Assembly: GCA_029570375.1 (NCBI GenBank)
Contig: JAKPXB010000040.1
Location: forward strand, 27,464 to 91,463
Length of the DNA: 64,000 nucleotides
Origin: Bacillota bacterium
GTDB taxonomy: Bacteria > Bacillota > Clostridia > Saccharofermentanales > DTU023
Reading direction: 5' to 3'
The notes under the pieces are model-generated. The model did not search any database. It was not told the origin of the DNA and saw only the letters and a list, made by a program, of their open reading frames with translations. Both the position numbers and the translations under genes were made by a program. Below, piece after piece: positions 6,953-26,935 of this stretch (positions are counted from its first letter, which is position 1; the number at the start of each line of letters is the position of its first letter).

Positions 6953-9754
6953 TCAGTCCCTGAGTTCGTCCAGTTTTGCCGTCTCGTCCGGCTGCTGCTT
7001 CGAGAGAACGGTTGTTTCCCCGAAATCAAGCTTCGATGGATCATACGCCTCGGCGGGCTGTCCGCCGCTCTGCCCCGGCGCACTGGCCTGCCCGGGTCGG
7101 TAAGGCGGGATGTAGGACTGGACAAAGGGCTGATTGGTTACGGGATGATCCGCCTGTATCGCGTTTTCCCAGGTTTCCGGTGAGAATCCTCTGCCATCCT
7201 CGCGGTATGCGTATGGCGGCTTCTCTGTCACCGCGCCGGCCGCAGGCACCGGCGCGCCCGGGGGATATGGGGGGGTAACAGGACCGGGACGGTATCCTCC
7301 TCCCGCCGGCGTCTGCGCATTCGGATACGGGGGAACAGCGGGGCCGGGGCGGTATCCTCCCGCCGGCGTCTGCGCATTCGGATACGGGGGAATGGCGGAT
7401 CCGGCAGGATAACCGGATGCCATCCGGTTATCGTTCGGCGCACCGGGATAGGCAGGTGCGCCCGCCTGAGCGCGCTTCCGGCGCTTCTTCGCCCGAACCG
7501 AAAGAATGAAAAAGACCGTGACAGCCGACAGGATTACCAGAAGCGCGGCCATCACATAGAGAACTAGTCTAATCTGCACGTTATTCATCATCTGCACCCA
7601 TCGACTTGTCGTCACATAGAAACCGGAGATTTCTCCTTCTGTCTGGTTACCCGCCGCATCGGCGCAGACAACGCGCAGATGGCGGGCGTTGTTTGAACCG
7701 CCCATGACGATGTAGTGGAAATCTTCTTTCCCTGAGACCAGTTTTTCGATCTCGAGCGCGTTCCACTCTTTTACCTTTTCTCCATCTAAATAAAGTATAA
7801 CATCGGAGAGCTTCACATTATCATCGGCGGTAAAAATAACATCGTAATCGCCTGCCGGGTAAGTTCCGCCTTTTTCAAGATTGAGGAACGATACGATTGG
7901 AGCTGTATTATCGACGATGAAGCTGATATCCATCCCCCCATGGCCGGATGAACTCTCCGATACGCGCCCAGCGCTGTCCTGGGAGCTGATGCTCAGGCGG
8001 TACAGACCGTCCTCTGTAAAATTGGCGCTGAAGATCCGGTACGCGTACTGGTAGAAACGGCCGTCCTCCCCGTCCTGCTCAAGACTGTAATCCACACCTT
8101 CTTTCAGTGTGGCGGAGTGATTATCTTTGAAGAGCGTCACTTGATTCGTCGCCAGCTTAAGGGCATTCGTCTCCGTCACAACGATATCCGGAGCCTTTTT
8201 CACGTATGATCCCGCCAGCGCTTTCGTTTCATCGCTGCATTCATACGTAGACCCGAACCGGTTGACGGAGAACCGGATCGTCTCTGATGTCGTATTGTTC
8301 AGCTTATCCTTCATCTTCACGCTGATCGTATAAAAATCGTCCATCTCCAGCGAGCGCGGAAACTCATGGTACTCCACACGCCCGCCTGTCGACTCCGTTT
8401 TCATCTCTTTAATGTTCAGTATGACTCCGCGGCGCTTCCCTGACAGCTGGATGTCCACACTCTCAGGCATCAGATTCGGGTCACTGAACTCGATGACAGG
8501 TGCGATCACCCCCTCACCTTTTTTATCGGATGTAATCCCGGTAACGGTGTAGGCCGGGGGAGTTGTGTCGATGATAAACGCCTGTTCGGCGAAGGACTCT
8601 GCCTGACGGCCGGCCATATCGCTGCAGCTGACCGCAAGAGAATACTCACCATCTTTATCATACAAAATCGTCGCGGTGTGCTTGTTCCCGTCACTCTGCC
8701 AACTGCTAACAACAGGCGGTTCAACTTCCTCCCCTCCCCGTCCGGCGCTCTGTGTGACAGTCACCAATTCGGGATCGAAATTCGCTTCGTCCACAGTGAT
8801 AGTCGCTTTCCGGAATTGATTGTAATAATTCGACATGACAGGCGCGGCGTCATCAAACCGGACATCCAGCACGGGGGCCGTACGGTCGATGAAAAACTCC
8901 TCATGAATGGGCGCCGCCGAAAGCCCGCCGGAATCTCTATAGGTTATGTCAACCGAGTAGGCTCCTTCTTCCGTGAACGGGATGGTCTTGGAAAAAGTGG
9001 ATACTGTCACTCCCTGGAAGGGGCTGCCGGCCGCGATTTCCTTGAAATCGTTCTGCCCGGGAAGCTTCTGCTTCACAGAAACTTTTACCAGAGTTTTGTC
9101 GAAATTAGCCTCTGTGACCTTGAGTGTCCCTGTCACCGCGTCGGTAAAGAACCCGCCCTTTTCCTTATTCTTATCGAATGTCAGCGACATGACAGGAGCA
9201 ACGCTGTCAATCACAAAGCTATCCAAGTATGATACAGGAGCTCCGGTTACACAGTCCGTACCCTCAATTTTCAGAATATAGCGCCCATCCTTCCTGAAGG
9301 CCAGCGTGCCTCTATATGTGTCCGCCTTACCACTGACCGGGCTGAACGCGATGTGTTTTCTCTCAATTGGCCCGTAGTCCTGGAAATAATAAGGGGTGTA
9401 TTCAACGCCGATATAAAAATCATCCGGATTAAAACCTGTATGTTTTATCTCGATCGTCGCCGTGCGCGGTTTTCTGTAGTATTCCCCGCCGAAAGCTTTA
9501 TTGTTGTCATAGGTAACCGTTACACTCGTTCCATGGCCGGTTTGAAGGCGAATGGGGAGATGGGACATGGGCGTTAACGGGCTCTGGCCTCCTATAAGAA
9601 GCCGCCTCGACTGCAGTCCCGCATGGTTTATATCCTCAACGACACCCGAATCAGCTTTTGCCGGCGCGCCCCCCGGCGCGTAAAAACACAGCATCAGACA
9701 GACGGCCCCTGCGAGCAAGGCCGCTCTCGATGCGCGATGTCTGCGGTTCTTCAT
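6953..9754 (-). CDS. Large type I membrane protein: signal peptide, several Ig-like modules, one TM helix, and a Pro/Tyr/Gly-rich cytoplasmic tail of about 180 aa
   Basis: Start re-set from 10222 to ATG 9754 (caaggagggc RBS at 9761-9770), because the upstream extension overlaps gene 9855-10412. The N-terminus MKNRRHRASRAALLAGAVCLMLCFYAPGGAPAKA is a signal peptide. Four modules end in FVIDSVAPV / FFIDRTAPV / FIIDTTPPA / FIVDNTAPI. The TM helix LVLYVMAALLVILSAVTVFFILSV is followed by KKRRKR. Confidence 0.8.
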   Translation of the reverse strand: MKNRRHRASRAALLAGAVCLMLCFYAPGGAPAKADSGVVEDINHAGLQSRRLLIGGQSPLTPMSHLPIRLQTGHGTSVTVTYDNNKAFGGEYYRKPRTATIEIKHTGFNPDDFYIGVEYTPYYFQDYGPIERKHIAFSPVSGKADTYRGTLAFRKDGRYILKIEGTDCVTGAPVSYLDSFVIDSVAPVMSLTFDKNKEKGGFFTDAVTGTLKVTEANFDKTLVKVSVKQKLPGQNDFKEIAAGSPFQGVTVSTFSKTIPFTEEGAYSVDITYRDSGGLSAAPIHEEFFIDRTAPVLDVRFDDAAPVMSNYYNQFRKATITVDEANFDPELVTVTQSAGRGGEEVEPPVVSSWQSDGNKHTATILYDKDGEYSLAVSCSDMAGRQAESFAEQAFIIDTTPPAYTVTGITSDKKGEGVIAPVIEFSDPNLMPESVDIQLSGKRRGVILNIKEMKTESTGGRVEYHEFPRSLEMDDFYTISVKMKDKLNNTTSETIRFSVNRFGSTYECSDETKALAGSYVKKAPDIVVTETNALKLATNQVTLFKDNHSATLKEGVDYSLEQDGEDGRFYQYAYRIFSANFTEDGLYRLSISSQDSAGRVSESSSGHGGMDISFIVDNTAPIVSFLNLEKGGTYPAGDYDVIFTADDNVKLSDVILYLDGEKVKEWNALEIEKLVSGKEDFHYIVMGGSNNARHLRVVCADAAGNQTEGEISGFYVTTSRWVQMMNNVQIRLVLYVMAALLVILSAVTVFFILSVRAKKRRKRAQAGAPAYPGAPNDNRMASGYPAGSAIPPYPNAQTPAGGYRPGPAVPPYPNAQTPAGGGYRPGPVTPPYPPGAPVPAAGAVTEKPPYAYREDGRGFSPETWENAIQADHPVTNQPFVQSYIPPYRPGQASAPGQSGGQPAEAYDPSKLDFGETTVLSKQQPDETAKLDELRD
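7291..7390 (-). repeat. Coding tandem repeat in the cytoplasmic tail (two copies of PPYPNAQTPAGG(G)YRPGP)
   Basis: ggtatcctcc(tcc)cgccggcgtctgcgcattcggatacggggg occurs at 7291-7333 and again at 7351-7390. The copies are identical apart from one 3-nt indel. Confidence 0.9.
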
Positions 9755-9854
9755 AGGGCAGCCCTCCTTGTTGGCGGTTTGCGCGAAACCGTGATCCGTC
9801 CTGAGTTTGGCTGAATAAACGCGGTTTAACCCCGGACGGACGACTGGATCAGGC

Positions 9855-10412
9855 CTAATCGACGGGAATCGAACTGGCGTAAAAATAAAGTTCAAATTCC
9901 GGTTGTATCTCCAAATACCGGATCGCAGTATCTTCCCCTGCTGTCGGCACGGGCGATAACAACTCTGTGGCGGCGTTCGGCGCTTCTTCCGCGTGCGGCA
10001 TGTGAGGTTCCGCGGGAAACTCCGGGGCGGGTGCCGCCGGTGGAGGAGGCGGAGCCGGAGGTACTGGGGAAGAAGCGGCTGCCCGCGGTCCGGATATATC
10101 CGGAAGCTCTTCTGTTCTGATCTTCTCGGTCGCTGCCAGTCGGTCCGCGCCGGCACTGTCACGGCGGGACGAAGGATCCTTGCCTGGCTTTCTCCCGTGT
10201 TTTCTTTTTCCGCGGGATACACCGCCGCTCTCCACAGAGGCGGTGCCGCTCCTGCGGAGCGCCGCGACTTCTTTGCGTTCCTGTGATCCGGTCAGAAAAC
10301 CGATCACCTGGGGAATCCGGAACATGAAGAATGTGATGACGGTAAGCAGGAACATCAGGGCAGCGCCGCTATAAAGCACGAGCGAGATTGTTTTCATCTG
10401 TTCAAACGACAT
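9855..10412 (-). CDS. Small single-pass membrane protein with an Arg/Pro-rich linker; function unknown
   Basis: Start set to ATG 10412, 1 nt after the kinase stop, with gggggagagg upstream. The N-terminal TM is ISLVLYSGAALMFLLTVITFFMF, followed by a PPAPPPPPAAPAP tract and a short C-terminal segment ...IRYLEIQPEFELYFY.... Confidence 0.6.
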   Translation of the reverse strand: MSFEQMKTISLVLYSGAALMFLLTVITFFMFRIPQVIGFLTGSQERKEVAALRRSGTASVESGGVSRGKRKHGRKPGKDPSSRRDSAGADRLAATEKIRTEELPDISGPRAAASSPVPPAPPPPPAAPAPEFPAEPHMPHAEEAPNAATELLSPVPTAGEDTAIRYLEIQPEFELYFYASSIPVD

Positions 10413-10413
10413 C

Positions 10414-12120: not shown

Positions 12121-12134
12121 GATAACCTCTTCTT

Positions 12135-12902
12135 CTAAAACGTTTTTATCGTAATGACTGAGATATTATCCCGTTCCTGCCTCTGTTTAACCAGATTGAT
12201 CAGCGCGCGCTCGGTTTCGCCGCTCACCTCCCAGGCGGTCAGCCGGTCAGGGTGAAGGGACTGGAATATTTCTTCTTCGCTGAGCTCATTGCGAAAGCCG
12301 TCTGTACACATCATGTAGACGGCATTTTCGCGCGTCTCTCCAAAAAAGAAATCGGGGTGCACTTCCTCCGACGCTCCGACACACTGGAGCAGAATATTGC
12401 GGCGCGGATCTCTTCTCGCCTCATCAGGTGTGAGTATGCCTTCCCGCACCTCCTGAGCGACGACCGTCTGGTCCTTCGTCAGCTGACACAGCTTCTCAGC
12501 GATTTCATAGGCGCGCGTATCGCCGACGTTGACGATCGAATACCTTTGCTGTGTTATCAGCATCGCCGTGAGCGTCGTACCTATCACATGTTTGCCGCGG
12601 GACGCAAACCGGGCGATCGCTCCGTTGCAGTATTCAATGAGGCTGTTCCAGTCGCTGCGGAGCCACTGATCAGGATGGTCCGAAGCGAGAACGCCCGCGA
12701 GTCTCTCGCCGGCCCAGCTGAAAAATGAGCGCACAACATACGCCGAAGCAATTTCACCGTAATCGAATCCCCCCATCCCGTCACAGAGAACAGCGAAAAC
12801 AACTCTCCCCTCGCCGGTTCGATAAACGCGGACATGGTAACTGTCCTGATTGGTCCGCTTCGTATTGCCGATATCCGTCGAGGCTGAAACGATAAATTCC
12901 AT
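12135..12902 (-). CDS. PP2C-family Ser/Thr protein phosphatase
   Basis: 255 aa. STDIGNTKRTNQDSY and LCDGMGG are typical PPM/PP2C metal-binding motifs. The gene ends 14 nt before the kinase start. Confidence 0.9.
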   Translation of the reverse strand: MEFIVSASTDIGNTKRTNQDSYHVRVYRTGEGRVVFAVLCDGMGGFDYGEIASAYVVRSFFSWAGERLAGVLASDHPDQWLRSDWNSLIEYCNGAIARFASRGKHVIGTTLTAMLITQQRYSIVNVGDTRAYEIAEKLCQLTKDQTVVAQEVREGILTPDEARRDPRRNILLQCVGASEEVHPDFFFGETRENAVYMMCTDGFRNELSEEEIFQSLHPDRLTAWEVSGETERALINLVKQRQERDNISVITIKTF

Positions 12903-12953: not shown

Positions 12954-14762
12954 TCAGCTCATGCGGAATTCAAATGATTCATTGGCGAGTCTTATCGAAT
13001 CGCCGTGTTTAAGTTCCGTCTCTTGATTGGCCGGAATCATCTGGCCGTTATGATAGGTATGATTTGTCGAATTTGTGTCGACCACGAAGAACCTGCCGTC
13101 GCGCGTAATAATATGGGCGTGGCTCCGGCTGATCGCCGTATTGTCCCCGATAAAATAATCGACAAAACTCTTCTCCTTGCCGATGCGGAAGAGCGGTTTG
13201 CTGAGGGGAATCCTCTCCTGATTGCTCTGGCGGATCAGATAGGGAAATGATTCCCGCGGTTCCTGCTTTACAGCTGCTCCAAGAACGGTTGTATCTTTCT
13301 GAGAGCTTCCCGTCAGCGATGTCGTCTCCCCGAAACTCACCGGCCCGGCGGCTGAAGGCGCCGGCGCGGGCATGGGCGGATACGCCGGTCTCTGTGCCGG
13401 AAAAGGAGGGGGAACGGGTGAAGGCGCCGGCTTCTGGGCAGGCGCGCTGACAGGCACGGGAGGCTGGAGCGGCTGTTTTGTTACCGGAGGCGCCGTCGGA
13501 TATTGTTGACGTGACCCCGGGATTTCCTCCTTCACCCCCGGAATCGAGAAAGGAACCGGCGGCGTGCCGGGCGCGGCTGGCGGTTCCGGCTTCCCGGGGA
13601 AACCGCCTCTCTGCGCGGCAGGAGCGGGCGCCGCACCTTGCTGGAATCCGGCTATCCCCGGAGGCGCCGCCTGCTGTTTTTTCTGCGCGTCGTAGATTGC
13701 CTTATTCTCCTTGCTGTAATGCATCATGAGATACATGAAAGACATTTTCTTCTCCCCGGATGCGGGCGCCGCGCTGCCTGTCCCTCCCGCGGGGGGCATA
13801 GGCTGCACGGGCTTCATCTGCGGAGATTTTTCTTTCCTTCGCCGGGGAGGACTTTCCGGGGCCGGAGCAATAGGCGGAATAGAAGGGGCTCCGGCGGCGC
13901 CTTGCGGCGAGGGCTGCATCCGCTGCCCGGGCGGCGGGGAGGGAGAAACGGCGTAGGAGGGGGCGGGAGCGCCGGCCGAAGGGGCTGGCGGCCTCGGTCC
14001 GTACGGCGGGATACTTGTCTGTGAGGCATCCACCGGCCGGGATTCAGCCGGCGGAGCACCGAAGTGAGGATCGCCGACCGGCGCGGCGCCGGCTGGCGGA
14101 GCGCCCGCATACGGCCCCCCGGTCAGCGGTGCACCGGCCGAAGGATACGGCGCCGCGGCAGACCCCTGGCCGATCGGATCACCCGCCAGATGGCGGAGAA
14201 AATCCCGGAAGTCCGGAAGGGAAAAGGCCTGCGGACGATTCATGAAGCTTATAATCTGGGCGACATAGCCGAGATTCTCAGATTGGTCAAATTGCGTCCG
14301 GAAGATAATGTCTTTCAGGAACAGGCTCACCTTTTCGTTGATATCGGCAGGTTTCCCGCCCGCTCCGCTCTCCGCCGCTGTGTCAATGACAGGAAGGCAG
14401 ACCATGTACGCGCGGCAGCTGGAGACATCGACGAAAATATAGTCCATCTCAAGGAGCAACGTGTCCGGATCGATCATGTACTCCTCCGCCCGCAGCAACG
14501 CGTTGGTAATGCCGGAAACCACCCCAAGGAGCTGTCTGCGGTTCACTGTTTCTGCGTAAAACTGGCGAAGGGATATCCGCGACGAAATATTGTATTTGAG
14601 GTATTGATTCTCATCTTTCTGTTGATAGATTGCGGGGAGCAGTCCTTCGATCTGATTGTGCGTAATCATCCCCAAACTGAGAGTGTCGATCCTGTCTGTA
14701 TCCGTTAACCGGTAAACAAGATACGAATGGGAACCCTGGCTGTCGTAGGTAAATGTGTACAT
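12954..14762 (-). CDS. FHA-domain protein: N-terminal globular domain of unknown function, long Pro/Ala/Gly-rich linker, C-terminal FHA domain
   Basis: 602 aa. The C-terminal ...FRIGKEKSFVDYFIGDNTAISRSHAHIITRDGRFFVVDTNSTNHTYHNG... carries FHA signatures (G-R, S-x-x-H, N-G). ETTS/DTTV motifs lie just upstream of the FHA domain. Confidence 0.85.
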   Translation of the reverse strand: MYTFTYDSQGSHSYLVYRLTDTDRIDTLSLGMITHNQIEGLLPAIYQQKDENQYLKYNISSRISLRQFYAETVNRRQLLGVVSGITNALLRAEEYMIDPDTLLLEMDYIFVDVSSCRAYMVCLPVIDTAAESGAGGKPADINEKVSLFLKDIIFRTQFDQSENLGYVAQIISFMNRPQAFSLPDFRDFLRHLAGDPIGQGSAAAPYPSAGAPLTGGPYAGAPPAGAAPVGDPHFGAPPAESRPVDASQTSIPPYGPRPPAPSAGAPAPSYAVSPSPPPGQRMQPSPQGAAGAPSIPPIAPAPESPPRRRKEKSPQMKPVQPMPPAGGTGSAAPASGEKKMSFMYLMMHYSKENKAIYDAQKKQQAAPPGIAGFQQGAAPAPAAQRGGFPGKPEPPAAPGTPPVPFSIPGVKEEIPGSRQQYPTAPPVTKQPLQPPVPVSAPAQKPAPSPVPPPFPAQRPAYPPMPAPAPSAAGPVSFGETTSLTGSSQKDTTVLGAAVKQEPRESFPYLIRQSNQERIPLSKPLFRIGKEKSFVDYFIGDNTAISRSHAHIITRDGRFFVVDTNSTNHTYHNGQMIPANQETELKHGDSIRLANESFEFRMS

Positions 14763-16103: not shown

Positions 16104-16115
16104 AAAGCACCTCCC

Positions 16116-16790
16116 TTACATGCCGGACAAACCGATGGCGATACACGCGCCGATCAAAACACAGGGCGCCAGTGAGATCGAATCCTTGCGCGTCTTTCGC
16201 CTGGTCAGGAGCAGATAGACCGCGTAGAAAAAGGAGACGATCAGAGAAAAGAATACGGCGTTGGCTGCCCCCCAAAGCCCCTGATACAGCCCCATGACAA
16301 AAAACAATTTGACATCGCCCATACCGACGCTGTTTTTCATGACGAATGAAATGATTAAAAAGAACCCGCCGACCAAAACGGCGCCGAGTGCCGCCGATTT
16401 CAGGATCACAAGCGCTCCCGCGGCATCAGTCATCAGCTCCAGACCGGCATAGACGACCCGCATCGCGATGGCGGCAAGAATCAGTGTATTGGGGATGATG
16501 TGGCGGACATGATCGATGGCAGCCATCGGAACAATGAACATCACAAGCGTCAGCAATTTGACGTGGTGCAGCAGCCCCGAAGCGGGATAGAGAGCCGTCA
16601 GCGAAGCGGCGAGAGCAATCCCCAGGAAAAGTGATATCGCGAGATACAGCTTGCGGTTTCGTCCCCGCGGAATCAAATGCGGCATTCTCAAGGCGGAGAA
16701 AGACTGACCGCTCAGTTTGCTGACGGTGAACGCGTACCCGAAAAAGGTCAGGACGAGAGTCAGAATGATTTCAATGATTAAGTGCTTCAC
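16116..16790 (-). CDS. tadV: A24-family prepilin peptidase (TadV/CpaA-like)
   Basis: Polytopic membrane protein with an Asp motif in NSVGMGDVKLF. The start is probably GTG 16790, directly after a ggagaaaggc RBS. The alternative ATGs at 16847/16841 lack an RBS and overlap the upstream gene. Confidence 0.8.
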   Translation of the reverse strand: MKHLIIEIILTLVLTFFGYAFTVSKLSGQSFSALRMPHLIPRGRNRKLYLAISLFLGIALAASLTALYPASGLLHHVKLLTLVMFIVPMAAIDHVRHIIPNTLILAAIAMRVVYAGLELMTDAAGALVILKSAALGAVLVGGFFLIISFVMKNSVGMGDVKLFFVMGLYQGLWGAANAVFFSLIVSFFYAVYLLLTRRKTRKDSISLAPCVLIGACIAIGLSGM

Positions 16791-16816
16791 GCCTTTCTCC
16801 TCAGCTATGGCCCCTG

Positions 16817-17716
16817 TCAGCGTCTGTCGCCCTGCATCCATCCGCATGTGACCGCTGTCTGGTTGAAGTCAAAATGGATATTTAACGGCAGCAGCGGAAT
16901 CATCTTCACCCGGTAGCGGACATTGACGACGATATAATCCGATCCGCCCGGGAACAAAAGGGAGCTTCTGAAATCCAATCCGTTTAAATAACTGTCGGCG
17001 CGCGGCAGAACGCGCATCGATCGCAGAAAGCTCTCCGGTTTCCCGCCTTTCGCATCGGTCAGATGCTTCTTGATCATCGCTGTGACGACCGGAGCGGCGA
17101 CGCGGCTTGACGTGTCCAGATCGAGATCGCCCCCGGCCGCGAGCTTTGCGAACCCAAAGAGCATTTTCACCGGATTCGAGGCGATGTTGTCCGCGGCTTC
17201 GCCGATTACTCCGCCGGATGTCTCGACCTTTCCTCCCTGGATGATACCGTCCCACGCTTTTCCGATATCGCTGTCGTTTATCTCAAAACTGTTTCCGCCG
17301 GCAATGCCCTGAATCGCTTGAAATACTTTGGGCACTTCCGACGAGATATTCTTGTTATTGGCTTCCTTTTTGTCTTTATATTCCCCGGAGCGTATCAGTG
17401 AATACAGGTAGCTGTATTCGGATATCTCCCGCGCTGTCGAATTGATGGCGAAAGCCATGCGCGCCTGAATTAAACAGACGTTGATCACCGATAACAGCGA
17501 GATAATCATAAAGATGAAGAAGCTGAGCGATATGATGGCTTCGATCGTGATACTTCCGCTTTCACGACAGCGCACTCTCACACCCGCGCGGTCCGCTGCT
17601 TTCGCCATACGGGACATCGGAGAAGACAATGAGCGATTCCTCACAGGTGCGCGCGGGAGAAACGTTTCCGGCCCGGCGGACGCGCTTCTCTTCTCCCCAT
17701 TCTTTGCAGACGGCAT
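16817..17716 (-). CDS. TadE-like pseudopilin / pilus assembly protein
   Basis: Start re-set to ATG 17716 after a ggaaggaggaag RBS, 28 nt downstream of the preceding stop. It has a prepilin-like motif ...RESG/SITIEAIISLSFFIFMI (Glu at +5) followed by a hydrophobic helix. Confidence 0.7.
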   Translation of the reverse strand: MPSAKNGEKRSASAGPETFLPRAPVRNRSLSSPMSRMAKAADRAGVRVRCRESGSITIEAIISLSFFIFMIISLLSVINVCLIQARMAFAINSTAREISEYSYLYSLIRSGEYKDKKEANNKNISSEVPKVFQAIQGIAGGNSFEINDSDIGKAWDGIIQGGKVETSGGVIGEAADNIASNPVKMLFGFAKLAAGGDLDLDTSSRVAAPVVTAMIKKHLTDAKGGKPESFLRSMRVLPRADSYLNGLDFRSSLLFPGGSDYIVVNVRYRVKMIPLLPLNIHFDFNQTAVTCGWMQGDRR

Positions 17717-21521: not shown

Positions 21522-21549
21522 TGACTCCCTCACCCCTTTCCATTGCGCG

Positions 21550-22218
21550 TCAGTCAAAAATCTTCAAGATACTTTTGACTTTGCCAAAGGCCTCCGAAAC
21601 ATACTTTGAGGCGCCGCTGCCTTCCAGGTAATCGATTACCATATCCGTGTTCCGGATAAATTCTGCTGAATAACTGACGGGCATTTCGGCGCGGGAATAG
21701 AAATCCAGCGATATCTTGTTCTTATCGCCGAGAAAACGAATAGGAAATGTTATCTCGTACTCAACCGCTACGTCAAAAGTAGCGTAGACAAAATAGTTGT
21801 TGAAGTGCGCTATATCTGACGCCGGCGTGACGAGGACAGGCCTCATCCCCGGGAAAAAACCCGCCGACTTCTTGCTGAATCTCTTCGCGACTTTCTCGTT
21901 GATAAGGGAGACGGCGCTGGCGCGGCTGTTCCCTTTGAGAAAACGGTACGGCTCGATGCTGATCTTTTCGTCGAGGCTGAGTTCCCCGTTATGCCTGTAC
22001 GCTCTTTCCATGATGGAATCCGCGCACACTCTTGCCCCTATGATCGCGTACTGTTCCACTTCAGATTCAGTCTCGGCTCTCTGGTAGAGAAGGTTCCCCG
22101 TGAAAATCAGGAAGAAAATCACGAAAAAGATAACAGGAAAGACAATCGCCGCCTCAACGAACACGACGCCGCTTTCATCGCTTCCCGCTTTGCGCCATGC
22201 GCGAATAACCCTATCCAT
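21550..22218 (-). CDS. TadE-like pseudopilin
   Basis: Start set to ATG 22218. The motif ...SDESG/VVFVEAAIVFPVIFFVIFFLIF has Gly at -1, Glu at +5 and a hydrophobic helix. Confidence 0.75.
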   Translation of the reverse strand: MDRVIRAWRKAGSDESGVVFVEAAIVFPVIFFVIFFLIFTGNLLYQRAETESEVEQYAIIGARVCADSIMERAYRHNGELSLDEKISIEPYRFLKGNSRASAVSLINEKVAKRFSKKSAGFFPGMRPVLVTPASDIAHFNNYFVYATFDVAVEYEITFPIRFLGDKNKISLDFYSRAEMPVSYSAEFIRNTDMVIDYLEGSGASKYVSEAFGKVKSILKIFD

Positions 22219-22343
22219 ACGAAGGCCTCGCTTTCCGATCCAGCTACTGGTTATTTGTTCGCTCAATGAACAGACCGGCAAATCAAAAGAACTGCCACCG
22301 GTTCATCCGCTCCGCGCGTTTTCAAGACGAAAGAGCCGTCCCT

Positions 22344-22559
22344 TTACTCGATGGCGGTCTCGGCCTTTCCTCTGATCAAATTGATCAAGTCTGTCAGTAA
22401 TGCTCCGATCGCCTTTCTGAAGATGACAGCCAATGCGATCGCGACGCCGATTAACACGACGATGGCGACGACATTGACCTCACCTTTTTCATCCCTGAGC
22501 AGCTTGTTGAGCCGTCCCGCGACGATTCCAAAGAAAAGTTCAATACGTTGCTGTAACAT
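22344..22559 (-). CDS. flp: Flp/Fap-like type IVb pilin (Firmicutes Flp1-like form)
   Basis: 71 aa with a taggaggg RBS. It has a charged leader ...LLRDEKG followed by the hydrophobic EVNVVAIVVLIGVAIALAVIF. It sits between the tadC-like and tadE-like genes. Confidence 0.75.
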   Translation of the reverse strand: MLQQRIELFFGIVAGRLNKLLRDEKGEVNVVAIVVLIGVAIALAVIFRKAIGALLTDLINLIRGKAETAIE

Positions 22560-22600
22560 GGTTAACCCTCCTAAGTATGACCTGTTAGAATGAATATTCC

Positions 22601-22619
22601 GGCAGCCTTCGGGGCTGCC
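22601..22619 (-). other. Intercistronic GC stem-loop about 40 nt upstream of the pilin start codon
   Basis: ggcagcc (22601-22607) / ggctgcc (22613-22619) with a 5-nt loop, inside the 124-nt tadC-flp gap. No U-tract on either strand. Confidence 0.3.
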
Positions 22620-22683
22620 ACTCAGTTAATCTATCTTCCGCGCCTATGGCAATCGCGATCTGATAACCTGCCTGTGCGGCTCT

Positions 22684-23559
22684 CTAGGATCCCAGATTGG
22701 CGAGAATAGGCACTATAACCAGAATCAGAATCCCGATAAACATCACGCTGATGGGGATCAGAAGCTTGGCGGCAGCGCGCTCTCCCTCACGGCGTACAAG
22801 CTGCTTCTTGAGCTGCCACACCTCGCGGCTCTGCTCCTGCAGCGCGAGCGTCAGATCGCGGCTTCCCTTGGTCATTCCCTGGATGATGGTCGAGGTAAAT
22901 TTCTTCACCTCCGGAATGACACAACGCCTGCCAAACTCGTAAATGGCGTCAATCTCCGCGACGCCGTTCCGGATGTCTTCGACGGCTATCCGCATCTCTT
23001 CGTAGAAAATCCCCTCTCCCCCGAACGCCACTTTCTCCCATGCTTCGCGCAGAATCATCCCCGCGTTGGTGAGCAGCGCGAGCTTTGAAACGACCTCCGC
23101 GAAATCGCGAAGCAGTTCATCGGAACGCGCCTGTATCCTCTTGCTCGCGAGGTTGCCGTAGTAATAGTAGGCGAGCCCCGCGAATACAAAGAAGACAACC
23201 ATAATCATCAGATCCTGCGCCAGCCCGTAAAAGATAAAGGCAAGGACAAAAAGAGTCATGGCGAACGTCATCTGCTGGGAGTGCGTGACGCGCAGGTAAT
23301 ATTCCGAATACTTTTCTCCGTAGAGAACATTCAGCTCCTGCCGGAGTTTTCTGTCACTTTTTGATTTGTACGTGTACCCGATCAGGTTGAGCAGAGCGTA
23401 CCCCGTACCGTAGATGTCTTTAAGGCGAAACTCTTTCTCTGATAAGACGGAGAACATGCTCTGGTACTGCGCGCCTTTCAGAAATAATACGATCCAGCCG
23501 ATGACAAGCAGCGTGCCCACCGCCATGATGGCTATCTGGAATATTTCAAGACCGAACAT
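22684..23559 (-). CDS. tadC: Type II secretion system F-family inner-membrane platform protein (TadC-like)
   Basis: Start set to ATG 23559 (gaggagggggagag RBS), 14 nt after the upstream stop. It has N- and C-terminal TM helices flanking a cytoplasmic helical domain, as in TadB/TadC. Confidence 0.8.
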   Translation of the reverse strand: MFGLEIFQIAIMAVGTLLVIGWIVLFLKGAQYQSMFSVLSEKEFRLKDIYGTGYALLNLIGYTYKSKSDRKLRQELNVLYGEKYSEYYLRVTHSQQMTFAMTLFVLAFIFYGLAQDLMIMVVFFVFAGLAYYYYGNLASKRIQARSDELLRDFAEVVSKLALLTNAGMILREAWEKVAFGGEGIFYEEMRIAVEDIRNGVAEIDAIYEFGRRCVIPEVKKFTSTIIQGMTKGSRDLTLALQEQSREVWQLKKQLVRREGERAAAKLLIPISVMFIGILILVIVPILANLGS

Positions 23560-23573
23560 CTCTCCCCCTCCTC

Positions 23574-24431
23574 TCACATCTTGATATTGAGCACTGACTT
23601 GCCGACAAAGTACGCGATAACGAAGATGATAATCGCGACTGTCGACGCCATTATGCCGGCAGGTGTTGTAAAGTTCTTGGCAAAGTCGGGACTCATCCCT
23701 TTGATGATCGCGACAATCGCGATCGGCATTATGGACATGAGGTTCTGCTCCGTTTTGTTCGCGGTCAGAAGCGTCTCAATATCCTCTTCGATTTCCATCT
23801 TGTCGCTTAGAATCGCGTGTGTATTCCGGATCACATCCTTAATATTGCCCCCCTTGCGGTAGCTGATACTGAAGACGCCGGCAAAGCTTGACACATCTCC
23901 GATATCGCTCCTGGCGCCGAAATCCTCCAGCAGTTCTTCCACGGGAATATTGTTCTGCACCCCGGACAGAATCAACTCCAGCTCGCGCAGGATATAGGCG
24001 CTGCTGTCGTACTGAACCTTAAGGTCTTCGTATACAGCGTAAAACGAATCCGTCACATTCTTTCCGGCGCTGAGCGATGTTGTCAGCCCATCCAGCATAT
24101 CCCGAAACTGCTTGCTCAGCTGGCGCTTGCGCTTGCTGATGATCGCTTTCGTCCGGGCGGGAATAAAGAGTTTGGCGGAAATCAGACCGACAATGGACGG
24201 AATCAGGATATTCAGGATATACGTAACCACCGTCGGCTGACCGAATTCGTCTTTGCCGAGTCCGCCGTAGAACAGGTAACCGACCGCGGCTCCGACGATA
24301 AAAGCGAGCAGCGCGTACCCGATCTTTTCCCACCGTTTCATGTAATAGACTCTGTAATTCATCGTCGGCATGTTCGTCGCGGACAAAAAAAACTCCGGTT
24401 CAGGCGGCGCTTTTGTTTTTTTCTTGAACAT
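23574..24431 (-). CDS. tadB: Type II secretion system F-family platform protein (TadB-like)
   Basis: 285 aa with the same T2SS-F architecture as the downstream paralogue. It lies immediately downstream of the CpaF ATPase. Confidence 0.8.
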   Translation of the reverse strand: MFKKKTKAPPEPEFFLSATNMPTMNYRVYYMKRWEKIGYALLAFIVGAAVGYLFYGGLGKDEFGQPTVVTYILNILIPSIVGLISAKLFIPARTKAIISKRKRQLSKQFRDMLDGLTTSLSAGKNVTDSFYAVYEDLKVQYDSSAYILRELELILSGVQNNIPVEELLEDFGARSDIGDVSSFAGVFSISYRKGGNIKDVIRNTHAILSDKMEIEEDIETLLTANKTEQNLMSIMPIAIVAIIKGMSPDFAKNFTTPAGIMASTVAIIIFVIAYFVGKSVLNIKM

Positions 24432-24523
24432 AGGCGGTATACCTCTTCACTCTTCCGGCCCGATCACGCCTCCCGCGGTCAGTACGGGGATCTTCACGCG
24501 GGAAATGGCCGCCCGTCAGGAGA

Positions 24524-25762
24524 TCAAATCACATGCTTGAATCCCGCGACCTGCAGCTTCTGCGTGTTTTTCATCTCATTGCCTGTGCGCGTCAGCTTCC
24601 CCGATACGCGCGACAGCGTGCTGTTCTCGTCCTCGAGAAACACATAGAGCGGGTTCAGCCGGATGCGCCCGTCTTCATACCCGAGGACTTCGGTGATTTC
24701 CATCGTGCGGCGCGATTTGTCGCGCAGGCGCGAGAGATGGATGATGATGTCCACCGCTGAGGCAATCTGCTGACGGATCGCTTCAAGCGGCAGCCCCGCC
24801 GCGCCCTGGAGAACCATCGTCTCCAACCGGCTCAGCATATCCTCCGTGCTGTTTGCGTGTCCTGTTGAGATCGAACCGTCATGGCCGGTATTCATCGCCT
24901 GCAGCATATCGAGGGCCTCGCCGCCGCGGACCTCACCGACGACAATCCGCTCCGGCCGCATGCGCAGAGAGGACTTGATGAGATCGCGGATGGTGATCTG
25001 CCCGACTCCCGCGACGTTCGCGGTACGCGTCTCCAGCCTGACGAGATTATCGATATTCTTGATTTGAAGCTCCGCCGAGTCCTCGATCGTGATGACGCGC
25101 TCGTCTCTCGGGATATAGTTTGACAGCGCATTCAGGAAAGTCGTCTTTCCGGAGCCGGTGCCCCCGCTGATAAAGATGTTGTACTTGGCTCTGACGAGGA
25201 TCTCCAGCTGTTCCGCGATCTCTTTTGTCAGCGATCCGTATTCGATCAGCTTCTCCATCGTCATAGGCGTTTTGGAAAACTTCCGGATGGTCACCGTCGG
25301 GCCGCAGAGCGCGATCGGAGGCAGAACGACATTGACGCGCGACCCGTCGGGCAGACGCGTGTCGCAGATGGGGTTCGCCTGGTTGACTTCGCGGCCGGCA
25401 AGACCGACAATGCGCTGGATGATGTCCTCCAGGCGCCGCTGGCTCTCAAATTTCTTATCGAGTTTGAACAGGCGGCCGTTCTGTTCAATGAAGATATTGT
25501 CCGTCCCGTTGATCATCACCTCTGTGATTGTGTCGTCCTTGATGATGCTGTCGAGGAGACCGAACCCCCGGATCGAACTGAATACCTGTTCCACGATCGA
25601 CACACGCTGCTCGATGGAGCAGTATTCCTGCCTGAGCCATTCGCCCGCGAGCTTCTCCACGTGCTGCATCAGCTCGTCGTCATCGAGTTCGCTCAGAGGC
25701 AGGTTCTCGCCGATATAGCGTTTGATCGCGGCGATCACCTCTTGTTCTCTTTCAAAAGTCAT
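24524..25762 (-). CDS. cpaF: CpaF/TadA-family secretion ATPase
   Basis: 412 aa. It has Walker A GGTGSGKTT, an Asp box ...RVITIEDSAEL..., Walker B/His box ...RIVVGEVRGGEA...TGHDGSISTGHAN. Confidence 0.92.
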   Translation of the reverse strand: MTFEREQEVIAAIKRYIGENLPLSELDDDELMQHVEKLAGEWLRQEYCSIEQRVSIVEQVFSSIRGFGLLDSIIKDDTITEVMINGTDNIFIEQNGRLFKLDKKFESQRRLEDIIQRIVGLAGREVNQANPICDTRLPDGSRVNVVLPPIALCGPTVTIRKFSKTPMTMEKLIEYGSLTKEIAEQLEILVRAKYNIFISGGTGSGKTTFLNALSNYIPRDERVITIEDSAELQIKNIDNLVRLETRTANVAGVGQITIRDLIKSSLRMRPERIVVGEVRGGEALDMLQAMNTGHDGSISTGHANSTEDMLSRLETMVLQGAAGLPLEAIRQQIASAVDIIIHLSRLRDKSRRTMEITEVLGYEDGRIRLNPLYVFLEDENSTLSRVSGKLTRTGNEMKNTQKLQVAGFKHVI

Positions 25763-25766
25763 AAGA

Positions 25767-26834
25767 TCACCTCAGGATCGGTTGAAAAAGATTCATCGAC
25801 ACAAGCTGTTCCACCACTTCTCTCTCCGGCGCGTGGGCGTAACGCGGCGCTCCTCCCAGAAGCTTGAGGTCAATTCCCTCGACAGCGCGGGAAACTTTGT
25901 TGCTGAACTTGTTGTAAACCAGGTACAGCTTGCTCAGAATGCGCAGATCGCGCTGTTCGTCAATCATCCGGAGCGCTTCGAAAGCGCGCACCATCTTCGT
26001 GTTCGCGACCGCCATGCCATCGCTGACAAGCACAATCGCGTACGCTTCCTGAAACGCGTGAAGCATCCGGCCGTCGAGTGCGAAATCCATGTCCAGAATG
26101 ATGTGATCGTAATGACCGCCGGCGCGCAGCTCTTTCAGCATCCTTTTCAGGTCTTCTTCCGTGAGCTCCTGAACGTCCAGCGCGATCGGCGGACTTTCAA
26201 AGAAGAACACACCGTCCGCCGATTCGCGAACAGCGCTCTCCAGTTTCATCGGCAGGTTGAGTTTTCCGCTCTTCAATACAAACAGGACATCGCTCAGCGT
26301 CTCCTGGCCGGAACCGGTAAAGAAGACATCCGACCGGCCGAAGAGTTCCAGGTTCAGATACAGAACGCGCCGTCCTGCCCGCGCGAGAGTCAGCGCGTAG
26401 GCGGCTGCCATCGTTGAGCTTCCTACGCCCCCGGCCGGCGAGGCGAACACGCTGATAAGCGCGCTCGAAGTACCGTCCGGCTTAAAGCCGGTGATGTCAC
26501 TCGATTTCTCTGCGTAAACGCTGAGAATCTGTTTGTAAATACTGTCAGCTTTCTGAAACTTCGATATGGCCGGTTGATCACGCAGCGATGCCACCAGCGG
26601 ATCGTCAACGAAATAAGCGAAACCACATCGGGCGGGGATCCTGTCGAGGTCAATCTCGAAGGATTCATCCGCCAGAAAAACATCAATCCGTGCTTCTTTC
26701 AGCTCACTGAGCGCCTTGTCCAGCTGCGTGAAAGAATAGATTTCGAGCTTGTCCCAATAGCGCGCGTTAAAAGCCGCCGCAAGCCTCTCCAGATAGCCCG
26801 GATCGCGATCTAAAATTGCCAGTTTAATCTTCAT
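25767..26834 (-). CDS. TadZ/CpaE-like protein: receiver-like N-domain plus atypical ParA/MinD-like domain
   Basis: Start set to ATG 26834 (MKIKLAILDRD...). The P-loop position reads SPAGGVGSST, with no lysines. It is the first gene of the locus, 4 nt upstream of cpaF. Confidence 0.75.
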   Translation of the reverse strand: MKIKLAILDRDPGYLERLAAAFNARYWDKLEIYSFTQLDKALSELKEARIDVFLADESFEIDLDRIPARCGFAYFVDDPLVASLRDQPAISKFQKADSIYKQILSVYAEKSSDITGFKPDGTSSALISVFASPAGGVGSSTMAAAYALTLARAGRRVLYLNLELFGRSDVFFTGSGQETLSDVLFVLKSGKLNLPMKLESAVRESADGVFFFESPPIALDVQELTEEDLKRMLKELRAGGHYDHIILDMDFALDGRMLHAFQEAYAIVLVSDGMAVANTKMVRAFEALRMIDEQRDLRILSKLYLVYNKFSNKVSRAVEGIDLKLLGGAPRYAHAPEREVVEQLVSMNLFQPILR

Positions 26835-26906
26835 AATCGTCACCCTTTGCTGCCGCCTCACCGCTCGCCGGTCCACGGCTTTTGAGCTGATCTTTATTCA
26901 TGTTTT

Positions 26907-26935
26907 ATTCTAACTTCTTTCACTTTCCAAGGCAA
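26907..26935 (-). promoter_or_regulatory. Candidate sigma-70-type promoter of the tad locus
   Basis: On the minus strand, TTGCCT, a 17-nt spacer, then TAGAAT, about 70 nt upstream of ATG 26834 and within the only AT-rich gap of the region. Confidence 0.45.

Follow-up and report, generated by a model that had tools for sequence, protein, structure and literature searches.

The 64-kb stretch of DNA that was analysed (the window; JGI metagenome contig Ga0116248_10000090, from an uncultured Clostridium) appears to carry an operon, conserved in Clostridia, that ties a monoderm Tad/Flp (type IVc) pilus machine firmly to a portable cassette for threonine phosphorylation, which would gate the pilus. 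From sequence comparison, we give this reading a probability of roughly 0.55. The 15 ORFs lie on the minus strand from 26834 down to 6953 (~20 kb), at the coordinates originally predicted (Table 1). Secretin-less Tad/Flp genes come first and are followed by genes for a DUF6382-FHA protein, a PP2C phosphatase, a Hanks kinase, a disordered membrane protein and an Ig-like type I membrane protein; ORF positions and Pfam matches demonstrate that a Tad/Flp locus and kinase, PP2C and FHA genes do share a single strand, as had been claimed. With the most plausible starts, intergenic gaps range from -25 to +136 nt, essentially the 1-125 nt given before, and from this spacing we infer co-transcription of the 15 genes. 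The upstream promoter sequence that had been called good does exist, but it is not good evidence because it matches at 9/12 positions and is one of 12 matches of equal grade in 10 kb (6.4 ± 2.1 expected), no better than the chance matches of the region. No convincing intrinsic terminator was found within or downstream of the operon.

Table 1. Features of the operon with their window coordinates, strand and supporting matches.
Feature	Position	Strand	Match or remark
Candidate sigma-70-type promoter, TTGCCT-17-TAGAAT	26907..26935	-	9/12 positions; weak
TadZ/CpaE-like, atypical receiver domain + ParA/MinD-type ATPase, 355 aa	25767..26834	-	TadZ-like_ARD 1.7e-44 + ParA-like
CpaF/TadA-type secretion ATPase, 412 aa	24524..25762	-	T2SSE 8.1e-61
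TadB-like platform protein, 285 aa	23574..24431	-	hhalign to TadC family 95.7%, E 8.8e-9
TadC-like platform protein, 291 aa	22684..23559	-	T2SSF 1.1e-7
Flp1-like pilin, 71 aa	22344..22559	-	Flp1_like 8.2e-13, 48 bits (cut-off 33.5)
TadE-like pseudopilin 1, 222 aa, G/VVFVE	21550..22218	-	TadE 5.3e-6
TadG-like giant minor pilin/anchor, 1258 aa	17745..21521	-	DUF5702 4.7e-25
TadE-like pseudopilin 2, ~263 aa, G/SITIE	16817..17608	-	hhalign N-terminus to TadE1 97.7%, E 1.9e-12
TadV/CpaA-type A24 prepilin peptidase	16116..16847	-	Peptidase_A24 1.6e-9; start 16847 or 16841
Membrane-anchored WG-repeat protein, 435 aa	14796..16103	-	WG_beta_rep 1.9e-43
DUF6382-linker-FHA protein, TseJ-like, 602 aa, without TM segment	12954..14762	-	DUF6382 3.2e-23 + FHA 8.4e-14
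DUF6382 domain, residues 1-195	14178..14762	-	predicted model pLDDT 90.6, pTM 0.87
Tandem candidate phospho-acceptor motifs FGETTSL...KDTTVL (T480/T481, T491/T492)	13281..13334	-
FHA domain	12987..13187	-	GK in place of canonical GR
PP2C/PPM phosphatase, TseF-like, 255 aa	12135..12902	-	PP2C_2 2.4e-10; catalytic Asp residues intact
Hanks Ser/Thr kinase, TseD-like, 568 aa	10414..12120	-	Pkinase 3.8e-44
Single-pass membrane protein, disordered Pro-rich cytoplasmic tail, TseH-like, 185 aa	9855..10412	-
Ig-like type I membrane protein, TseI-like, 933 aa	6953..9754	-	Big_3_3 9.6e-13
FGETTVL motif (T914/T915), cytoplasmic tail of Ig-like protein	7004..7024	-	also in closest relative L008

Profile searches, which the original prediction had proposed, gave Pfam matches for 12 of the 15 products and none for the "TadB-like" protein, the second "TadE-like" protein and the Pro-rich membrane protein. 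The first of these is a platform protein as labelled, but hhalign makes it a TadC paralogue. The TadZ-like protein matched PDB 3fkq (E 8.5e-98), deposited as "NtrC-like two-domain protein", which we take to be the E. rectale TadZ of Xu et al. 2012. In the Flp1-like pilin, DEKG/EVN (slash, cleavage site) precedes the hydrophobic helix and is conserved among 54 orthologues, and both catalytic Asp contexts of the A24 peptidase, AID...IPN and GMGD, are conserved as well. The Tad N-terminal domain match of the TadG-like protein (0.002, 18.9 bits) was below the cut-off. The start of the second TadE-like pseudopilin is uncertain, as its ORF extends to 17932 while the JGI gene call gives 263 aa. Neither a secretin nor TadD was found among the operon products, in line with the earlier claim. 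A monoderm-type Tad/Flp locus is supported. The WG-repeat gene had been grouped with the signalling module, a grouping that fails: this gene travels with the A24 gene (median gap 10 nt, 67 loci), and the T7SSe-type locus L087 has no WG_beta_rep among its called genes and nothing that matches the WG protein of the window. The WG-repeat gene belongs to the Tad half. The locus shares TadZ, CpaF, TadB/C, Flp, TadE-like proteins and an A24 peptidase with the classical Tad/Flp loci (Aggregatibacter tad, Caulobacter cpa, Bifidobacterium tad), whereas its cleavage motif is G/EVN instead of G/XXXXEY. To our knowledge, no characterised classical Tad locus has a kinase/phosphatase/FHA/Ig cassette, a WG-repeat protein or a DUF5702-type TadG.

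By sequence comparison, each of the five distal genes has its homologue, in unchanged order, among TseJ/F/D/H/I of the T7SSe set TseJ-TseF-TseD-TseH/K-TseI, for which there is a bioinformatic description only (Garrett et al., Microlife 2024; PMC11217815). The DUF6382-FHA protein shares 54% identity with residues 258-420 of TseJ (E 2e-39) and 53% with the L087 FHA protein. Identity to the T7SSe-locus proteins is 43% for the PP2C, 48% over 541 aa for the kinase (full length, E = 0) and 32% over 593 aa for the Ig-like protein (E 6e-80), and the N-terminus of the TseH-like membrane protein matched p239 (E 7e-6). Families and order are those of T7SSe (and T7SSj/d), down to the tandem TTVL motifs and GK variant of the DUF6382/FHA protein, the PP2C, the membrane kinase with a helical ectodomain, the disordered single-pass protein and the giant Sec-dependent, C-terminally anchored Ig-like protein. 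In contrast to T7SSe, no EssC/TseC, WXG100 or YukD-like TseB gene was found in the 64-kb window or in 160 sampled loci (±10 kb flanks), and a complete Tad machine stands in for them; moreover, the small polytopic p157 protein is missing from the window, and the window Ig protein is half-size with a long motif-bearing cytoplasmic tail. The novelty originally claimed has to be narrowed: the distal cassette is already listed for T7SSe (PMC11217815), and no publication was found on the Tad-linked form. Since the same cassette lies beside Tad and beside T7SSe, it looks like a candidate portable switch for cell-surface machines. In T7SSf, too, a TadZ-like ATPase accompanies DUF6382-FHA and PP2C, and Garrett et al. 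warned that the adjacency of T7SSg/h to Tad may be coincidental (PMC11217815).

The predicted model of DUF6382 matched the Pan3 pseudokinase, pIP501 TraF-N and many kinase domains in Foldseek (query-normalised TM 0.42-0.63 for the best 50 matches), indicating that the domain is probably a pseudokinase with a kinase-like fold. In the FHA domain, the pThr-pocket residues G528 (76/76), S545 (71/76), R546 (72/76), H548 (76/76) and N567 (76/76) are conserved, as is T569; the canonical phosphate-binding Arg, however, is Lys in 71/76, which counts against our reading. The kinase consists of a kinase domain, a single TM segment (278-296) and an ectodomain that is all-helical in a low-confidence predicted model. 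Its K42, D139, N144 and D157 (DFG) are present in 65/65, and the metal-binding Asp residues of the PP2C in 73-74 of 74; from these near-invariant catalytic residues, both enzymes look active. The Ig-like protein has a signal peptide, Big_3 domains, a TM segment (725-743) and a 190-aa cytoplasmic tail. The kinase-like model of DUF6382 and the invariant kinase and phosphatase catalytic residues are new, as is the distribution of a candidate phospho-motif, [DE]TT[VILF]L, which is limited to membrane-protein tails and FHA proteins; in the latter it mostly stands as a tandem just ahead of the FHA domain. The FHA proteins have 103 copies (59 of 79 proteins carry it) and the TM-protein orthologues 122 (44 of 57, with 1-4 TT[VL]L motifs per carrier), against 1 copy in 209,475 background residues. 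In the window FHA protein, ~35 residues separate the tandem motifs from the FHA domain downstream, and the first Thr of each copy, T480 and T491, is conserved in 75/76. The motif also occurs in TseJ and T7SSe-locus proteins; the outliers among relatives are one stray kinase copy and, among Ig proteins, L008 alone. Two observations weigh against our reading: the window's own TM protein has only the degenerate ATELL/GEDTAI and no clean motif, and no Tad protein carries the candidate motif or an FHA domain. PP2C and WG proteins of the sampled loci likewise have no copy.

Synteny was examined in two samples, each made up of the query's 80 closest relatives: 80 species-level Clostridia genomes (GTDB species) collected via the FHA protein, where a locus counted as informative if the sequence before the DUF6382-FHA gene spanned 4 kb or more, and 80 metagenome loci collected via the kinase ectodomain (43 informative). 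Tad genes were directly upstream of the DUF6382-FHA gene in 66/68 informative loci of the first sample, together with PP2C (64/68), kinase (62/68), TM protein (49/57) and Ig (47/57) genes; in the second, Tad genes were found in 40/43 and a T7SS core in none. The kinase, PP2C, FHA and Ig genes thus keep stable synteny with the tad core in several families of Clostridia, contrary to the case that the original prediction had named as refuting it, and the joined layout recurs in more than 100 related loci. The gene abutting the FHA gene varies by lineage (WG, median 15 nt, 47 loci; TadE2, 17 nt, 23; TadZ, 24 nt, 7), and adjacency is kept across Lachnospiraceae, Oscillospiraceae, Acutalibacteraceae and Ruminococcus at 40-50% protein identity despite internal rearrangements. 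The coupling is not obligatory, because a few loci (L051, L054, L073) keep FHA but have lost PP2C and kinase, and some orphan cassettes (L075, L098, L135) have neither Tad genes nor FHA.

These orphans, with no machine nearby, would also fit a cassette that is co-transcribed but functionally separate. Such a self-contained surface-sensing/adhesin unit would have no more than its operon and timing in common with the pilus genes; the Ig-like protein would serve as adhesin or receptor, and the kinase, phosphatase and FHA protein would signal elsewhere, e.g. to envelope homeostasis or transcription. The restriction of the candidate motif to cassette proteins, never Tad proteins, and the presence of the cassette beside the unrelated T7SSe point the same way. 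We nevertheless consider this unlikely: the junctions with three different Tad genes are very tight and persistent, the cassette of L056, detached from the pilus genes, retains a TadZ-like gene, and in ~110 informative loci the cassette lies beside envelope-spanning nanomachines (Tad or T7SS) only.

In the checkpoint that we favour, the membrane kinase would use its helical ectodomain to sense a cue from the envelope or from contact, perhaps with a share taken by the giant Ig-like surface protein, and would phosphorylate the Thr-Thr of [DE]TT[VL]L both in single-pass membrane-protein tails (here the Ig tail) and in the tandem copies upstream of the FHA domain. The FHA domain could read these phospho-threonines in trans, docking at the membrane, or in cis, in a GarA/OdhI-like self-inhibited state. 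The kinase-like DUF6382 would pass this state on to the cytoplasmic hub of the Tad machine, for which TadZ/CpaF is the most plausible candidate, and so gate the place or time of pilus assembly, and the PP2C phosphatase would reset the switch. In the actinobacterial GarA and OdhI, phosphorylation leads to cis auto-inhibition, and the window FHA protein resembles them in that an E-T-T motif precedes the FHA domain by some tens of residues on one and the same chain. However, it is not an orthologue (24 bits against OdhI; cut-off 200), its motif is tandem and also found on partner membrane proteins, and it has an N-terminal kinase-like domain. The PpkA/PppA/Fha1 (TagH) pathway of T6SS likewise places a Hanks kinase, PP2C and FHA protein in an envelope-nanomachine operon with the same post-translational gating logic, although machine and phylum differ, the window FHA protein scores 32.6 bits against TagH (cut-off 120), and the window system adds the pseudokinase-like domain, TTVL motifs and the giant Ig-like protein. 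T7SSb, by description, pairs a kinase-like domain with FHA in a Gram-positive secretion machine, through the EssB/YukC pseudokinase and the EssC FHA domains (PMC11217815), whereas the window has both modules in one soluble protein plus a predicted active kinase and phosphatase.

No publication on kinase control of a Gram-positive Tad system was found, and to that extent the earlier statement that no characterised equivalent is known holds; an FHA precedent does exist in the Tad family, namely Myxococcus xanthus Kil, a Tad-derived machine with several FHA-domain proteins that is proposed to be contact-triggered (PMC8460266). By analogy, the window machine could be a contact-dependent secretion or killing device with the cassette as contact sensor, paralleling the proposed role of the cassette beside the antibacterial T7SSe, whose relatives secrete LXG/RHS toxins (PMC11217815); the atypical TadG (1258 aa, DUF5702) and Flp processing motif would agree with this. 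Such a device seems distinctly improbable, as toxin, immunity, LXG and RHS genes are absent from the operon and its immediate neighbours, CpaF has no FHA fusion and the full ordinary set of Tad pilin, pseudopilins and peptidase is present. Kil itself is diderm with a secretin, has an FHA domain fused to the ATPase KilF, is not mentioned with a kinase in the text of that paper (PMC8460266) and has no sequence relationship to the window cassette. Finally, that the cassette serves a T7SSe encoded elsewhere in the genome, Tad adjacency being coincidental, is very hard to credit: the cassette proteins are as similar to T7SSe-linked as to many Tad-linked ones (the T7SSe-locus kinase takes 29th place among 64 ordered by distance to the window kinase) and the genome searches covered ±10 kb flanks, but neither the 64-kb window nor any of the 160 loci had an EssC, WXG100 or YukD-like gene, and the adjacency survives rearrangements across all four lineages named above.

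All fifteen ORFs predicted for the operon were present on the minus strand, and nearly all of the product labels first given to them were borne out by Pfam profile search. The ORFs are separated by gaps of -25 to +136 nt, with GGAGG-like ribosome-binding sites before most of them, and, judged from gene spacing alone, the 15 genes may form a single transcription unit. A promoter that had been rated as good does exist upstream of the operon, but its 9/12 match is indistinguishable from background. Scans for intrinsic terminators inside and after the operon gave nothing above chance, with no hairpin and U-tract after the last gene. In the Tad half, the TadZ-like protein matched TadZ-like_ARD (1.7e-44) and a ParA-like ATPase in Pfam as well as PDB 3fkq (E 8.5e-98), the CpaF/TadA-type ATPase matched T2SSE (PF00437, E 8.1e-61), TadC matched T2SSF (1.1e-7) and the first TadE-like protein matched TadE (5.3e-6). 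Two labels without a Pfam hit were recovered by profile-profile comparison: TadB aligned with TadC at 95.7% (hhalign, E 8.8e-9), and the N-terminus of the second TadE-like protein aligned with the first at 97.7% (E 1.9e-12). The 71-aa Flp pilin scored 48.0 bits against Flp1_like (cut-off 33.5); its conserved motif, DEKG|EVN[IV]VA, is unusual and, unlike the canonical G|XXXXEY, has no E at +5, and G|xxxVE is present in both TadE-like pseudopilins. The body of the 1258-aa protein labelled TadG is DUF5702, with a Tad N-terminal domain at 18.9 bits, under the Pfam cut-off of 22.3. The A24 peptidase matched Peptidase_A24 (1.6e-9) and keeps the catalytic Asp contexts AID..IPN and GMGD in ~90% or more of 67 orthologues. 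As predicted, neither a secretin (RcpA/CpaC) nor TadD was matched by Pfam among the operon ORFs or the flank; both belong to diderm systems only, and their absence is expected in a monoderm and is no argument against Tad membership. By all testable core features, the sequence places the locus in the Tad/Flp (type IVc) family.

The WG-repeat gene, whose product matched WG_beta_rep in Pfam and which had been counted with the signalling genes, pairs instead with the A24 peptidase gene (median gap 10 nt), and we do not regard it as a member of the signalling cassette because no WG-repeat gene was found in L087, a reference locus of the type VII secretion variant T7SSe. The cassette thus comprises the genes for the DUF6382-FHA protein, the PP2C phosphatase, the Hanks kinase (STK), a Pro-rich single-pass transmembrane (TM) protein and an Ig-like type I membrane protein. 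A DUF6382 search found 132 relatives among GTDB species representatives, and the best 80, which were analysed with phmmer and jackhmmer and had DUF6382 identities of 39-81% to the query, came from Lachnospiraceae (including Roseburia, Lachnospira and Acetatifactor), Oscillospiraceae, Acutalibacteraceae, Ruminococcus, Faecousia and others. Among these best 80 of 132, Tad genes lay upstream of the FHA gene in 66 of the 68 loci with at least 4 kb upstream, and PP2C was found downstream in 64/68, STK in 62/68, the TM protein in 49/57 and the Ig-like protein in 47/57. The kinase ectodomain was taken as a cassette marker expected to favour neither machine, and a pattern built from a 16-sequence alignment was fitted by 389 metagenome relatives, many from human gut. 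Among the best 80 of these 389, 43 had at least 6 kb upstream of the kinase; 40 of the 43 were Tad-linked and 0 had a T7SS core. Both samples comprised the best 80 matches with ±10 kb of flank, and many of the metagenome loci are probably redundant strains. The protein homologue search returned short fragmentary relatives and no distant ones, and context was taken from the related loci and contigs. The proposed synteny of the signalling genes with the tad core therefore clearly held across both samples in this neighbourhood check. An annotation artefact or chance clustering was rejected on the basis of 160 syntenic loci.

The order of the Tad half varies, with the A24-WG pair before or after the pseudopilin block and the TadZ-like gene sometimes adjoining the FHA gene. 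The FHA gene always follows closely behind its upstream neighbour; where this is WG, TadE2 or TadZ, the median gap is 15 nt (47 loci), 17 nt (23 loci) and 24 nt (7 loci), respectively. Exceptions are three loci that keep FHA without PP2C or STK and three cassettes without upstream Tad genes. The orphan cassettes, with neither Tad nor T7SS genes upstream, are listed in the table together with the coordinates of other features; the neighbours of the one at L098 are CdaA, YbbR, TetR and GlgB. In Anaerosacchariphilus polymeriproducens (L056), a detached set with no pilus genes within 10 kb consists of genes for a TadZ-like protein, a Zn-ribbon protein (143 aa), DUF6382-FHA, PP2C, STK and a TM protein, between a radical-SAM/BATS (biotin-synthase-like) gene and glycosyltransferases. 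This arrangement suggests that TadZ is the closest partner of the cassette. T7SSf likewise pairs a TadZ-like ATPase with DUF6382-FHA and PP2C (PMC11217815).

Positions of features in the window and in related loci (L-numbers), and matches of the window cassette proteins to L087
Feature	Position	Strand	Detail
Operon	window 6953-26834	minus	fifteen ORFs
FHA protein			53% identity to L087
PP2C			43% identity to L087, full length, 1e-65
STK			48% identity to L087 over 541 aa including ectodomain, E = 0
Ig-like protein			32% identity to L087 over 593 aa, E 6e-80
TM protein			matches L087 239-aa protein (p239) at N-terminus only, E 7e-6
DUF6382 domain	window 14178-14762
MSFMYLMMHYSKENKAIYDAQKKQ linker element	window 13666-13743		FHA protein residues about 340-365
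Interval where p157 would sit	window 9755-9854
p157	L103:11407-11874; L087:13905-14378		polytopic membrane protein, ~155-165 aa
FHA protein in two ORFs	L089:3898-4592		also L090, L091
Second kinase	L117:16582-19764		also L116, L118, L119, L121, L124, L126, L127, L130, L133, L135, L136, L138, L143, L144, L146, L150
Orphan cassettes PP2C-STK-TM-Ig	L098:8374-17935; L135:8487-19623		no FHA gene
Orphan cassette FHA-PP2C-STK-TM-Ig	L075:7942-18512
Detached cassette	L056:8212-14077		NZ_QRCT01000045.1
Flg_new protein	window 27331-28377	plus	divergent
LuxR/GerE HTH protein	window 28462-30372	minus	636 aa
NTPase_1/AAA and FecCD-type ORF	window 33416-35140	minus	574 aa
Histidine-utilisation block	window 39932-44325	plus

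Pfam identified PP2C_2 and Pkinase in the two enzymes, and Big_3_3 together with other Ig-like domains in the Ig-like protein. In the kinase, K42, E62, D139, K141, N144, DFG and APE are essentially invariant (65 sequences), and the metal-binding Asp residues of PP2C are invariant (74 sequences); both enzymes look active from their residues. No curated NCBIfam family scored above its cut-off for any of ten proteins tested, and on this result a housekeeping PASTA kinase Stk1/Stp1 pair was rejected. The topology predicted from hydropathy and the positive-inside rule puts PP2C, the FHA protein, the kinase domain and the tails that bear the motif in the cytoplasm, with the Ig domains, the WG repeats and the helical ectodomain of the kinase on the outer side. 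A single-sequence AF2 model of the ectodomain was all-helical and of low confidence (pLDDT 55.8), and was left out of the fold search. In many human-gut loci, a second kinase of ~1000-1060 aa follows the Ig gene, with the domain order microbial PARG, GDSL lipase, FHA, Pkinase; the combination of PARG (ADP-ribose-glycohydrolase-type) and a Hanks kinase in one protein is an unusual fusion.

The FHA protein of the window contains DUF6382 (3.2e-23) and FHA (8.4e-14) domains in Pfam. A DUF6382 model from a 47-sequence alignment (pLDDT 90.6, pTM 0.87) retrieved protein-kinase folds in Foldseek, with query-normalised TM of 0.42-0.63 over the top 50, including the Pan3 pseudokinase, many kinase domains and, as second-best match, the TraF N-terminal domain of the Enterococcus pIP501 conjugative T4SS (PDB 8cba, TM 0.51/0.51, 195 aa). 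The modelled fold is thus kinase-like, and DUF6382 is probably a pseudokinase adaptor because the Gly-rich loop, HRD and DFG motifs are missing from its consensus. A protein-kinase-domain match was also listed for TsfJ in the FoldSeek table of Garrett et al. (PMC11217815). The TraF match is a hint of recurrent use of small kinase-like adaptor domains by envelope machines of Gram-positive bacteria. In the FHA domain, the pocket residues G528, S545, R546, H548, N567 and T569 are conserved, and the canonical Arg is replaced by Lys in 71/76 sequences, as in TseJ, the T7SSe counterpart.

A [DE]TT[VILF]L motif occurs in 103 copies in 59/79 FHA proteins and in 122 copies in 44/57 single-pass TM proteins, against a background of 1 copy in 209,475 residues. 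It was absent from every Tad, WG and PP2C protein, and one stray copy was found in an STK. The FHA proteins typically carry it in tandem as NFGETTVLGGG..IGETTVL, ~35 residues N-terminal to the FHA domain, with T480 and T491, the leading Thr of each copy, conserved in 75/76. The TM protein of the window has degenerate copies only, and that of L087 has eight TEVL or TTVL repeats. In the window, the Ig-like protein carries FGETTVL at T914/T915 in a 190-aa cytoplasmic tail, and the same holds for its closest relative, L008, the only related locus with the motif in this protein. We found no description of the TTVL motif in the literature, and a text search with the motif string gave nothing relevant. 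Between DUF6382 and the TTVL motifs lies a second linker element, MSFMYLMMHYSKENKAIYDAQKKQ (core HYxKEN), found in 48/75 orthologues, which may form a helix that binds a partner or the membrane. In three loci, the FHA protein was called as two small ORFs downstream of a WG-repeat gene, one a DUF6382 fragment of 92 aa and the other an FHA protein of 129 aa; the protein may truly be split there, or its low-complexity linker may have decayed.

The DUF6382 domain led us to the T7SSe described by Garrett et al. in 2024 (PMC11217815), which is defined by EssC/TseC, two WXG100 proteins and a YukD-like TseB. In addition, that system includes the membrane Ser/Thr kinase TseD with a helical ectodomain, the PPM phosphatase TseF, the single-pass proteins TseH and TseK, the DUF6382-FHA protein TseJ, and the giant TseI, which has Ig-like domains, carries a Sec signal and is anchored at its C-terminus (PMC11217815). 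Residues 258-420 of TseJ, as printed in Fig. S4 of that paper, were 54% identical to the C-terminus of the window FHA protein (E 2e-39), and both have tandem GTTVL-type motifs and the unusual FRIGKE with Lys for the canonical Arg. With this TseJ fragment as query, L087 was recovered from a Hadza gut metagenome. Its genes encode, in order, EssC (FHA+FtsK), an 89-aa ORF, two WXG100 proteins, three ORFs, and then FHA, PP2C, STK, a 239-aa TM protein, a 157-aa membrane protein and a 2015-aa Ig-like protein; a second such locus, L088, is partly degraded. The window cassette matched the L087 tail gene for gene in identical order, the TM protein at its N-terminus only, and the window Ig-like protein shares the TseI-type feature of a transmembrane segment, at 725-743. 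A homologue of the 157-aa protein (p157), encoded between the TM and Ig genes, was not found in the window by search against the L087 proteins and is present in 32/80 GTDB relatives. It is also absent from L008, and in both loci the Ig-like protein is half-size (about 900 vs 1700-2000 aa) and has gained its long motif-bearing cytoplasmic tail.

EssC/TseC was not found by a Pfam scan of the flanks or by tblastn of L087 EssC over the whole 64 kb, nor were WXG100 (TseA1/A2) or YukD-like TseB in the 64-kb window, and a T7SS core was found in none of 160 related loci. Since the tests for EssC, WXG100 and TseB were all negative, the locus is not a T7SSe. The idea that the window conceals a T7SS was likewise rejected, with no homologue of any T7SSe core protein across the 64 kb. 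Neighbour-joining distances of STK and PP2C, with one intact T7SSe-type locus, did not discriminate between a single and a repeated move of the cassette between Tad and T7SSe. The original prediction had put the system forward as a candidate for an undescribed one. This stands for the Tad-linked form, since we found no paper that ties a kinase/phosphatase/FHA cassette to a Gram-positive Tad locus; it fails for the cassette itself, which was already known, bioinformatically only and only as a part of T7SSe (PMC11217815).

The reading that we favour is of the cassette as a putative dedicated Thr-phosphorylation switch on the Tad machine. The kinase would answer an extracellular or envelope cue and then phosphorylate the TT motifs, the FHA domain would read the phosphorylated motifs, either in cis or, at the membrane, in trans, the state would be passed on to a TadZ/CpaF hub by the kinase-like domain, and PP2C would reset the switch. 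We infer each of these biochemical steps from the observed parts list, homologies, synteny, motif distribution and fold. The T6SS threonine-phosphorylation pathway (TPP) resembles this architecture only, with a Hanks kinase, PP2C and FHA protein inside the operon of the machine; the window FHA protein is not orthologous to Fha1/TagH (TIGR03354, 32.6 bits vs cut-off 120.25), and no T6SS family was found by Pfam among the operon products. GarA/OdhI switches have an ETT motif shortly before their FHA domain, and the window protein is analogous in placing ETT-type motifs, here in tandem, upstream of FHA in one chain; it is not orthologous to OdhI/GarA (NF041660, 24 bits vs cut-off 200). The locus, neither a T6SS-type TPP nor a GarA/OdhI orthologue, probably works in a similar way.

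The main weakness of the switch model is that no Tad protein carries a [DE]TT[VILF]L motif or an FHA domain, and the only hint of where the cassette contacts the pilus machine is that its genes recurrently pair with TadZ-like genes. We consider it unlikely that the cassette is an autonomous surface-signalling or adhesin unit merely co-expressed with the Tad genes. A Tad-derived contact-dependent device is conceivable by analogy with the T7SSe sister of the cassette and with the Gram-negative Tad-like Kil system, where FHA proteins are known (PMC8460266); we hold this alternative to be quite doubtful. Kil has an FHA domain fused to its Tad ATPase, and a short secretin, whereas the CpaF of the window has a T2SSE domain only and there is no secretin. 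That a T7SS accessory set adjoins Tad genes by coincidence is very improbable. The switch may extend beyond the pilus: we tentatively propose, at roughly one chance in three, that a portable cassette of five to six genes, a 'TTVL phospho-switch', has been built into both the Tad pilus and T7SSe, Gram-positive envelope machines with no evolutionary relationship, where it would serve as a general sensor of contact or of the envelope and license assembly. It would combine a Hanks kinase and PP2C with a pseudokinase-FHA adaptor, membrane proteins that bear the motif, and a giant Ig-like protein that spans the wall.

Tad pili play a major part in colonisation, and we know of no work on their post-translational control in Gram-positive commensals. 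Operons of this type occur widely among gut Clostridia (Roseburia, Lachnospira, Ruminococcus, Faecousia and Acutalibacteraceae), and the DUF6382 family forms 956 clusters at 50% identity (E <= 1e-30). If the portable cassette does act as such a sensor, Tad piliation, or a Tad-derived contact-dependent function, would be conditional on a surface cue in these bacteria. The switch model can be tested at named sites: T480/T491 of the adaptor, T914/T915 of the Ig tail, K42/D139 of the kinase, and the FHA pocket. TseD, F, H, I and J are unlikely to be specific to T7 and would form a shared regulatory and envelope plug-in module for different machines, which changes the reading of the 2024 'T7SSe core components' and bears on contact sensing by Gram-positive nanomachines through a thick wall.

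The window comes from a 148-kb JGI metagenome contig, and the genomes nearest to it are Oscillospiraceae-type MAGs. The operon is flanked by unrelated genes. On one flank are genes for MgtE, a RidA-type (Ribonuc_L-PSP) protein and an ABC transporter with branched-chain-amino-acid-type permeases. On the other flank, a gene for a LuxR-type regulator with LuxR/GerE HTH at its C-terminus shares the strand of the operon and lies a short way upstream, and a divergent gene for a Flg_new (Listeria-Bacteroides repeat) protein lies between it and the operon; either product could regulate transcription of the operon or be a surface protein associated with it. Elsewhere in the window, the 574-aa ORF within an iron-siderophore-type transporter cluster joins NTPase_1/AAA to a FecCD-type ABC permease, and may be an unusual fusion or two genes merged by the first-start ORF rule. 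The genes for urocanase, glutamate formiminotransferase and imidazolonepropionase make up an ordinary histidine-utilisation block that has no connection with the operon.
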